This document shows positions 50,001 to 53,000 of a DNA stretch of 64,000 bases, piece after piece. The position numbers are program-made. Within the stretch, counting starts at the first letter, position 1, and each line of letters starts with the position of its first letter. The stretch lies in NCBI RefSeq assembly GCF_056746865.1, contig NZ_CM163382.1; one strand, given 5' to 3'.

Positions 50001-53000
50001 TGTCATTGCAATACGCACTTGATTCACTGAGAAATGGAAAAGGCAAAGTCAATCTGATTAAACATTACTCCTCCGTTGAATCCATACAGCAGCATGTTCC
50101 CTTAGTCCGGGACGCGGAGTTCAGATCATTACTTCGCCATCCTCCTGCAGGGAGTCGCGTTATCGCGAGTAAGGATTTTGGCTTCGCTTTAGATATTTTC
50201 TTCTGTCGAATGATGGCAAACAATGTCAGTCATATGTCCGCGATTTTATATATAGACAATCATACTTTGTCAGTAAGGCTACGAATAAAGCAGTCAGCGT
50301 ATGGGCAATTAAATTATGTTGTGTCCGTTTACGACCCGAACGATACCAACGTTGCCGTCAGAGGCACCCACAGGACAGCACGGGGCTTTCTCTCGCTCGA
50401 TAAGTTCATCAGTTCAGGTCCCGATGCTCAGACCTGGGCTGATAGGTATGTTCGCAACTGTGCAATTGCTTTTCTGCCCCTATTACCTGAGGGAGTTCCA
50501 GGGGCTATTTTCGCGGGTATTGCATCACGAATGCCATTTGCCCCTATACATCCATCGGCAATGTTGTTAATAATGGCCACAGGCCAGACTCAACAGCTTA
50601 TTACATTATTCAAACAGTTACCCATACTCCCTGAAAAAGAAATCATTGAAATAATAACTGCGCAGAATAGCGTTGGTACACCTGCTTTATTTCTGGCTAT
50701 GATGAACGGACATACTGACAACGTAAAAATATTTATGCAAGAAATTCAGTCACTGGTAGATAATCATATCATTCATGAAGATAATCTGGTTAAATTACTG
50801 CAAACTAAAAGTGCTAACGAAACACCTGGACTCTATATCTCCATGTTGTATGGATTCGATGAAATAATCGATATCTTTCTGAATGCATTAACCACTCCAA
50901 TAACACAAGAGCTTTTAAGCAAAAAAATGGTGATGGATATTTTAGCAATGAAAACACGTGATGGTGAGCCAGGATTATATGCCGCAATGGAAAATAATCA
51001 CCCTTTGTGTGTCACACGGTTCCTCTCTAAAGTTTATGGAATCGCTGTTAAATATAACCTCAGCAAAATTAACATCATGGATTTATTAAAAGGCGCAACA
51101 GCACATGGAACCCCTGCTTTATACATCGCCATGAGCAAGGGTAATAAAGACGTCGTGTTATCTTATATATCAACGCTGGGTACTTTTGCAAAAAAATATT
51201 CTTTTAGTCAATGTCAGTTATTCACATTGTTGGCCGCTAAAAATCATGACAACATGTCAGCTGTTCATATAGCCATTCATCATAATCATTATAAAACTGT
51301 AGAAACATATTATGCTGCTATAAACGTAATCAGCCAAAGCCTGAGTTTTAGTGCTGATGAACTAAAGACGTATTTATAACCAGACATTTATATATCGATA
51401 CATAATTTTATTTTTTTCATAAACCGCAAAAACAGTGATCAGGTGTACAACGCCACCCGACGGCTGTAATAACAAAAAATCCCTTGATGCCTGTCCCTTT
51501 TGTTACACTCCGTTATCACGCACAAGAGATATGCAGGACACTGGTATGCCGACTAAACGCTTTGATAAAAAACACTGGAAGATGGTGGTGGTGCTACTGG
51601 CAATCTGTGGCGCTATGTTGTTGCTACGTTGGGCAGCAATGATTTGGGGCTGAGCAGTGACAAACGAAGACAGCCAGACCGCATAACACGGTCCGGCAGA
51701 TAATTTTACATGCTGTAGCCCAGCGATAAGGTTGTCCGACGATCGGTATGTTCCGGTGCAGACTCTGGAGGTTCAGAGTTCCATGTGACGTTGTAAGCCA
51801 CCTTCAGTCCAAAATGTTCATTAATAGCAACATTTAATGCGCTTTCGGAGTTCAGCGTTGTGTCTTCCGCGCCAAAGACGGAAACACCCTGCGTAAATTT
51901 AGCGTTGTCAGTCAACTGCCATGCATAAGCCCCGGAGGCATAACCCAGCGGCTGGGTTTCACTGGCATTATCGGTATATTTGTCGTAACGCACACCTGGA
52001 CCGAATTCAAAGCGGAAACTGTGTACCGGGCCATTCAAAAACTGGCGACCATAACCCGCGGTCAACACATCGCGCTCTCGATAGCCGTTATAACGGTCTG
52101 TCAGCCAGCTTGCCTGCCCAAATAAATAGTCATAATCAGTTAAATTAAAACGGCTACGCCCGCCCGCCGCATATTTTTCTGAAGAACGCTCATCATTAGA
52201 AGAAGTATTACTGGCGTTCCCCCACAGCGACCAGGCAGTGGTTTGTCCATACCAGGTCATGGTGGTGTCAGCCGTAAGTGAGGAGCTTTTCGTATTGCCT
52301 GATTGTGCAAGATATCCTGCGTTCAGATTACCTTCGAAAGGTTTTTTAGCGCTGGCAGGATCGTCCATGACAGTAAAAACGGAATCATCGGCAGCTGCAT
52401 TCAGTGACGCAAACATGCCCCCCGCCAACATAACGATGGCAGGAACTGTCTTCAAAAGCTTCATTTATCAAGAGTCCGTACAACAAAAAAAGAGACCTTC
52501 GCGGTCCCGGAAACTTTCTTAAGGATCAAAGATTAGCGTCCCTGGAAAGGTAACGAATTATAAAAAGGCGCGAATAACTTAGCAATGTATTCTTATTTCA
52601 TTTTTTGAATAAGCATGTGGCGAAAACAAATTTTTATTTATATATATTTATCTGCAAAATTTTAAATAAAGCTCTAATAAATCATATTGTTAATTTCTTC
52701 ACTTTCCGCTGATTCGGTGCCAGACTGAAATCAGCCTATAGGAGGAAATGATGGTACGTATCTATACGTTGACACTTGCGCCCTCTCTCGATAGCGCAAC
52801 AATTACCCCGCAAATTTATCCCGAAGGAAAGCTGCGCTGTACCGCACCAGTATTCGAACCCGGAGGCGGCGGCATCAACGTCGCCCGCGCCATTGCCCAT
52901 CTTGGAGGCAGTGCCACAGCGATCTTCCCGGCGGGTGGTGCGACCGGCGAACATCTGGTTTCACTGTTGGCAGATGAAAATGTCCCCGTCGCTACTGTAG

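Follow-up and report, generated by a model that had tools for sequence, protein, structure and literature searches.

The question raised by one locus in a 64,000-nucleotide (nt) stretch of contig NZ_CM163382.1 (NCBI RefSeq assembly GCF_056746865.1; the whole stretch is called the window below) is whether a 35-codon open reading frame (ORF) on its plus strand encodes a real protein and, if it does, what that protein might do in the cell. A first-pass annotation of the same DNA had named the product YniD, had given it a single predicted transmembrane helix, and had placed the ORF 166 bp past an ankyrin-repeat gene; the coordinates proved exact in the sequence, the ORF starting 166 nt past the stop codon of an upstream ORF of 632 amino acids (aa), and its 35 codons read MPTKRFDKKHWKMVVVLLAICGAMLLLRWAAMIWG. 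The length of the ORF, taken alone, is statistically unremarkable, with 311 ATG-started ORFs of at least 35 codons in the window, so the case for yniD rests on conservation and database evidence. On that evidence, the ORF is almost certainly yniD (b4535), a real small membrane protein that is already annotated.

Comparison with E. coli K-12 MG1655 showed that the window ORF and yniD of that strain (NC_000913.3, 1805165-1805272, labelled "uncharacterized protein YniD") were identical at 108 of 108 nt. The two genes agree in nucleotide and protein sequence and likewise lie between arpB and ydiY; the gene upstream of them is an intact frame of 632 aa in the window and frameshifted in K-12. The exact window protein is the UniProt entry YNID_ECOLI and is present on at least 1000 contigs. 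The NCBIfam equivalog NF041491 ("small membrane protein YniD") was matched over profile positions 1-34 of 34 with 85.7 bits against a cutoff of 40 (E 1e-24), and the window protein has the traits of the family, namely a length of about 35 residues, an N-terminus rich in basic residues, a single hydrophobic helix and LLLRWAAMIWG at the C-terminal end. The window is itself E. coli DNA, and of 5426 complete genomes of this species, 5416 contained the 326-nt region around the gene (51380-51705), always with the annotation "yniD: small membrane protein YniD", and the other 10 had no yniD match; in urinary isolate 118UI the region was 100% identical. The name chosen at first pass is thus borne out by the K-12 nucleotide identity, by NF041491 and by the annotation of 5416 of the 5426 genomes, and the gene is already known, being present in the K-12 annotation, UniProt and NCBIfam. 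Plasmid-labelled records accounted for two of the 5418 yniD matches in E. coli genomes.

The first-pass annotation had also described such an ORF as easy to miss in automated annotation. This does not hold for RefSeq, as the figures above indicate, but it does apply to generic gene callers, which mis-call the start; many YniD representatives in the databases carry spurious N-terminal extensions of 15-64 residues for this reason. The Pfam library held no family for YniD, and a HMMER search, run exhaustively against 1.84 billion representative proteins, returned only 21 matches, all of them from the YniD family, so YniD is, as far as sequence goes, without detectable relationship to any characterised small single-helix membrane protein.

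To compare the frame across species, one genome per species was scanned with the peptide pattern L[LI][LI]R[WL]AA[MI][IFL][WG], which gave 65 loci from Escherichia, Citrobacter, Enterobacter, Kluyvera, Lelliottia, Leclercia, Yokenella, Trabulsiella, Huaxiibacter, Pseudenterobacter, Entomohabitans, Pantoea, Rahnella, Affinibrenneria and Edaphovirga; Tatumella proteins are likewise named YniD in databases. No Salmonella or Klebsiella locus was among the 65 obtained with this single pattern. The frame was open in 65 of the 65 loci and its stop codon lay 0-2 codons past the final IWG or IWA, while the in-frame sequence 5' of the start was unrelated between genera. Codon-position analysis was done with 49 full-length sequences (the window and 48 of the 65 loci), which were 48 distinct nucleotide sequences, and the variable columns at codon positions 1, 2 and 3 numbered 23, 8 and 32, each of 35. 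By the Nei-Gojobori method, the ratio of non-synonymous to synonymous substitution (dN/dS) relative to the window was 0.01-0.23 where synonymous sites were unsaturated, and yniD of E. albertii differed from the window gene by 16 synonymous changes and 1 non-synonymous change. Among the 5416 E. coli genomes, the ORF alone was at least 99% identical in 5405, versus just 1339 for the query with flanks. On these substitution patterns the yniD frame is under strong purifying selection across Enterobacteriaceae. Loss of the reading frame in related genomes, which had been offered at first pass as a way to refute the gene, is not what was found, and that refutation fails, since the frame is kept well beyond Escherichia.

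An in-frame ATG at 51531, which would give a protein of 40 aa, was tried as an alternative start and rejected, because it has no properly spaced Shine-Dalgarno sequence, because the in-frame sequence 5' of the conserved start is not conserved between genera, and because several genera have a stop codon two codons 5' of the conserved ATG. As for translation, chromosomally tagged YniD (sequential peptide affinity tag, SPA) was reportedly detected by Hemm et al. in 2008. Detection of YniD by mass spectrometry in M9-grown cells is credited to Treitz et al. (2016) in the passage on this protein in a 2025 Mol Cell Proteomics article about mass spectrometry of small proteins (PMC12529367), which is in line with the translation that the first-pass annotation had left for confirmation.

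Then the architecture of the product was analysed. Residues 1-12 are basic (Lys/Arg-rich, net charge +4), and the hydrophobic core, MVVVLLAICGAMLLL, has a mean Kyte-Doolittle hydropathy of 3.04 across 15 residues. The AlphaFold model, based on a small family alignment, consists of one helix covering residues 4-34, with a mean predicted local distance difference test (pLDDT) score of 82. The single transmembrane helix predicted at first pass agrees with both the hydropathy and the model, and by the same two analyses YniD has the single transmembrane helix and the length of at most 50 aa that mark small regulatory or accessory membrane proteins. YniD would accordingly in type be a single-pass inner-membrane protein, whose 12 N-terminal residues should remain cytoplasmic (N-in) by the positive-inside rule, whose residues from about 13 to 33 would span the inner membrane, and whose invariant R28-W29 together with the C-terminal IWG would lie at the periplasmic interface.

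A protein of 35 residues would leave the ribosome before the signal recognition particle (SRP) could act on it co-translationally, and YniD is probably inserted post-translationally by SRP/FtsY with YidC or SecYEG, as are YohP and YkgR, which define the post-translational SRP-dependent insertion of small membrane proteins (PMC7549839). YohP (27 aa) and YkgR (33 aa) resemble YniD in length and architecture, so all three would face the same insertion problem and probably take the same route, although neither has sequence similarity to YniD.

To see how the helix might work, 42 distinct YniD family sequences were compared; K12, L17, C21, L25, R28, W29, A30, A31 and W34 were invariant and most other helix positions were nearly so. 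Near-invariance on every face of the helix fits a helix that is enclosed by protein, either a partner or its own copies, and not by lipid. Among these options we tentatively favour the mode of action of an accessory subunit, in which YniD would pack its helix against a larger inner-membrane protein and serve it in an accessory or regulatory way. This would be by analogy with CydX, KdpF, AcrZ, MgtS, MgrB and PmrR, small E. coli proteins that have a single helix in the inner membrane and bind to larger proteins. Like YniD, they have about 30-50 aa and one transmembrane helix, and each is encoded by a stand-alone small gene with its own Shine-Dalgarno sequence; YniD has no detectable sequence relationship to the group, and its gene does not share an operon with any candidate partner. 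The statement made at first pass that membrane proteins of this size often modulate transporters or sensor kinases is fair as a general rule, yet there is nothing to show that it holds for YniD. It is conceivable, though we regard it as doubtful, that YniD goes further and is an obligatory subunit, so far overlooked, of an inner-membrane complex conserved in enterobacteria, much as CydX belongs to cytochrome bd. If this were true, it would explain the near-invariance of all helix faces, the mid-membrane Cys21 and the interfacial Arg28-Trp29 from Escherichia to Pantoea and Rahnella.

Several results weigh against the accessory-subunit reading. No one-sided conserved stripe was found along the YniD helix (permutation p 0.45), and a simple two-helix interface would be expected to leave such a stripe. 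The conservation of the C-terminal positions 25-34 is inflated, because the loci were fetched via a C-terminal motif, and the HMMER matches, which are unbiased by the motif, include occasional C-terminal variants such as LRLAAMIWG. No conserved same-operon neighbour pointing to a partner was seen in the Enterobacteriaceae and Pantoea/Rahnella loci compared, and the neighbours of yniD differ between these two groups. Finally, full-text searches for "yniD" and "b4535" gave only incidental mentions, and the searchable literature yielded neither a function nor a partner or phenotype for YniD.

The expression signals were analysed in the same loci. Upstream DNA is otherwise unalignable between genera, and its sole conserved block reads TTTTGTTACACT in the window. 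A putative extended -10 element, TGTTACACT, is present there (Table 1); of about 46 Enterobacteriaceae loci, 40 have the motif TGnTAnnnT at 37-46 nt 5' of the start, and TGNTAYRCT has only 4 occurrences on both strands of the 64-kb window. Its hexamer TACACT also agrees with TAYRCT, the -10 hexamer that sigma-S prefers. No -35 hexamer was found at the proper spacing from this element, which is why a simple scan for two-hexamer sigma-70 promoters returned no plus-strand site for yniD. The putative extended -10 element suggests that yniD has its own promoter, from which transcription would start near 51516 and leave a 5' untranslated region of about 30 nt; a gene order that is kept without the upstream gene likewise points to a transcription unit of its own. 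The segment 51516-51560 folded into nothing more structured than shuffled sequence (z +1.16), and related yniD loci have purine-rich GGA or GGAG motifs at the position matching the Shine-Dalgarno sequence. Peaks of sigma-factor SELEX (systematic evolution of ligands by exponential enrichment) listed as "thrS/yniD" map close to where arpB begins, at a distance of 1.5-2 kb from yniD on its upstream side, and were not used as evidence for its regulation.

Insertion sequences (IS) affect this upstream region in two cases. In E. coli TUM14664, an IS3-family element (1763-2991 of the fetched locus) ends 16 nt before the start of yniD (3008-3115), taking the place of the native promoter region and linking yniD to a chromosomal segment, zntB-dgcM, that has no relation to it. 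In a stationary-phase culture kept for 1,200 days, an IS2 insertion between arpB and yniD went to fixation in one lineage (PMC7858067). Given these two cases, the native upstream region of yniD is dispensable, at least in some conditions.

Between yniD and the convergent ydiY lies a G+C-rich hairpin, which a terminator scan picked up on the minus strand with 11 pairs, 7 of them G-C. On plus-strand RNA the same hairpin has a folding energy of -13.1 kcal/mol (z -2.56) and is followed only by AAUUUU, a weak U-run. It is probably the terminator of ydiY and possibly also ends the yniD transcript. A second terminator-like hairpin with a T-run was seen on the minus strand within the yniD upstream region, where no minus-strand gene ends; it is degraded in K-12, with stem and T-run bases changed, and terminator-like matches amounted to 2 against 0.5 expected, a weak excess. 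This hairpin could stop read-through from ydiY, or it may have arisen by chance. The idea that an antisense RNA ends there was rejected, since the hairpin is not conserved even in K-12 and the excess in the scan is weak.

Table 1 Features at and around yniD in the window
Feature	Position	Strand	Remark
Upstream ORF (espL1/arpB)	49481-51379	+	632 aa
Terminator-like hairpin and T-run	51461-51438	-	within yniD upstream region
Putative extended -10 element	51501-51509	+	TG at 51501-51502, hexamer TACACT at 51504-51509
Shine-Dalgarno AGGA	51535-51538	+	7 nt 5' of ATG, read from sequence
yniD coding sequence	51546-51653	+	ATG at 51546, TGA ends at 51653; 35 codons plus TGA
G+C-rich hairpin	51673-51697		in the 52-nt gap between convergent yniD and ydiY
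ydiY	51706-52464	-	convergent; stop at 51706
ydiZ	53781-54071	+	between pfkB and yniA

The gene order in the window is thrS, espL1/arpB, yniD, ydiY, pfkB, and the divergent thrS on one side and ydiY-pfkB on the other were found in every Enterobacteriaceae locus with enough flank. The upstream gene, said at first pass to contain ankyrin repeats, does contain them in its C-terminal part (Pfam Ank_2), and its intact frame also begins with a ShET2 domain (PF07906, E 5.5e-45). In strain 118UI its annotation reads type III secretion effector EspL1, and in K-12 a frameshift has left it as the pseudogene arpB. Of the loci fetched, only those of E. coli proper had an EspL1 homologue at the yniD locus, and one Escherichia sp. 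locus had two short espL1 remnants beside an intact yniD. The placement "downstream of arpB" is therefore correct as a position and incidental otherwise, as other Enterobacteriaceae have thrS beside yniD without arpB/espL1. From this synteny arpB/espL1 appears to be an Escherichia-specific insertion with no evident link to yniD, which itself looks like a stable small gene whose neighbours come and go. Horizontal replacement of yniD together with espL1, considered in view of the high divergence from the E. albertii gene, which differs at 16 of some 23 synonymous sites, was rejected, because pfkB (85%), ydiY (89%) and yniD (84%) have diverged to a similar extent.

An extra gene was seen between yniD and ydiY in eight loci (L008, L009, L010, L016, L030, L037, L045 and L046; 5309-5542 on the minus strand in L010), from Enterobacter, Lelliottia, Kluyvera, Citrobacter, Leclercia and relatives. 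Its product has about 71-88 aa and a signal peptide (...DVEAGSNIAPGSQSTGQSMNDAFDVHKLVAGEWS), and the N-terminal part showed sub-threshold similarity to the DUF1471 proteins YbiJ and BhsA. The gene is missing in E. coli, where just the 52-nt gap separates yniD from ydiY. Further along, ydiZ has a full-length match to Pfam GhoS (PF11080, E 8.4e-49), and its RefSeq name is type V antitoxin endoribonuclease GhoS; no GhoT-like toxin gene was noticed beside it.

The neighbours known from E. coli are all missing beside the yniD homologue of Pantoea and Rahnella, which there adjoins a conserved protein of 65-80 aa, convergent in Pantoea and in tandem in Rahnella. This protein was seen in L049-L060, L065 and L066 (about 5242-5442, minus strand) and in L062 and L063 (5154-5393, plus strand), follows the pattern RRPxGRWxYYIxYxxILWPCPVRWEWExxYGGWLPFYYxPTxEFVxGDP, and is absent from the window; its relatives, in Rahnella, Rouxiella, Ewingella, Serratia, Pantoea, Mixta, Tatumella and Hafnia, are all called "hypothetical". 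It had no Pfam or NCBIfam match and so gives no functional clue for YniD, though it might be part of the same system. The Pantoea homologue (L049-L060) has a GTG start behind a GGAGG Shine-Dalgarno sequence, and at about 4940-4990, 5' of it, a conserved perfect hairpin, GATGCGCC-loop-GGCGCATC, is followed by a T-rich run and looks like the terminator of an upstream OsmC-like gene. The TGnTAnnnT element of the Enterobacteriaceae is absent 5' of these Pantoea homologues, so expression signals differ between the two groups.

With this evidence in hand, other explanations of the locus can be weighed. The one closest to an accessory subunit does without a heterologous partner, YniD forming a homo-oligomeric helix bundle or acting as a lipid-interacting element that alters the membrane or makes a small channel. 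Conservation of all helix faces and not of one stripe would suit it, as would the small residues spaced A19xxxA23 with G22 plus A30-A31, the invariant Cys21 and Arg28 within or at the edge of the bilayer, and the absence of a conserved neighbour hinting at a partner; however, nothing points to oligomerisation, the conservation data carry an ascertainment bias, and it is general knowledge that most characterised E. coli proteins of this class work through larger partners. We consider this explanation unlikely. A hydrophobic peptide of this size also recalls the type I toxins (Hok, Ldr, Ibs, TisB, ShoB, DinQ), which are likewise short single-helix peptides encoded by stand-alone genes, and a toxin-like YniD would be repressed by an antisense RNA; ydiY transcription does converge on yniD, and the minus-strand hairpin of the upstream region could in principle bound an antisense transcript. 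For yniD, unlike the toxin genes, no antisense RNA signal was seen in consensus scans, and each genome has a single yniD, whose place in the chromosome stays the same from genus to genus. A consensus scan found no minus-strand promoter-like site within or just downstream of yniD, no Rfam RNA family was matched in 48900-52800, and the hairpin is degraded in K-12. Given the promoter proposed above, the leader would be short and unstructured with a good Shine-Dalgarno sequence, not long and structured, and the protein is described as detectable in ordinary cultures in what PMC12529367 relates of Treitz et al. (2016). A toxin of this type is very improbable here.

The remaining explanations concern the gene and its surroundings more than its product. 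As yniD lies on the same strand 166 nt downstream of arpB/espL1, with no plus-strand terminator-like site between them, it could be imagined as a co-transcribed accessory factor of that gene. This tie is largely refuted by synteny: thrS directly adjoins yniD, without an EspL1 homologue, in every non-E. coli Enterobacteriaceae locus, the Escherichia sp. locus keeps espL1 remnants only, and in K-12 a pseudogene stands beside an intact and identical yniD. The conserved -10 element between the two genes also speaks against it, and we give a functional tie hardly any credence. That yniD is a chance ORF, an untranslated sequence, or a leader peptide regulating a downstream gene might seem to be favoured by the 311 ORFs of such length in the window and by the lack of a Pfam family, but it is refuted by dN/dS values far below 1 and by the lack of any same-strand downstream gene, ydiY being convergent. 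Variation falls mostly at third codon positions, the frame is kept in 65 loci, a curated NCBIfam model exists, and mass-spectrometric detection is reported in the passage cited from PMC12529367, so that this is the least probable of all the explanations.

YniD thus stands as an orphan of 35 residues that is under very strong purifying selection and is present in essentially every E. coli. For work on its function, the conserved extended -10 element, the independence from arpB/espL1, the conservation of the whole helix and the invariant Cys21, Arg28 and Trp29 would provide comparative handles.

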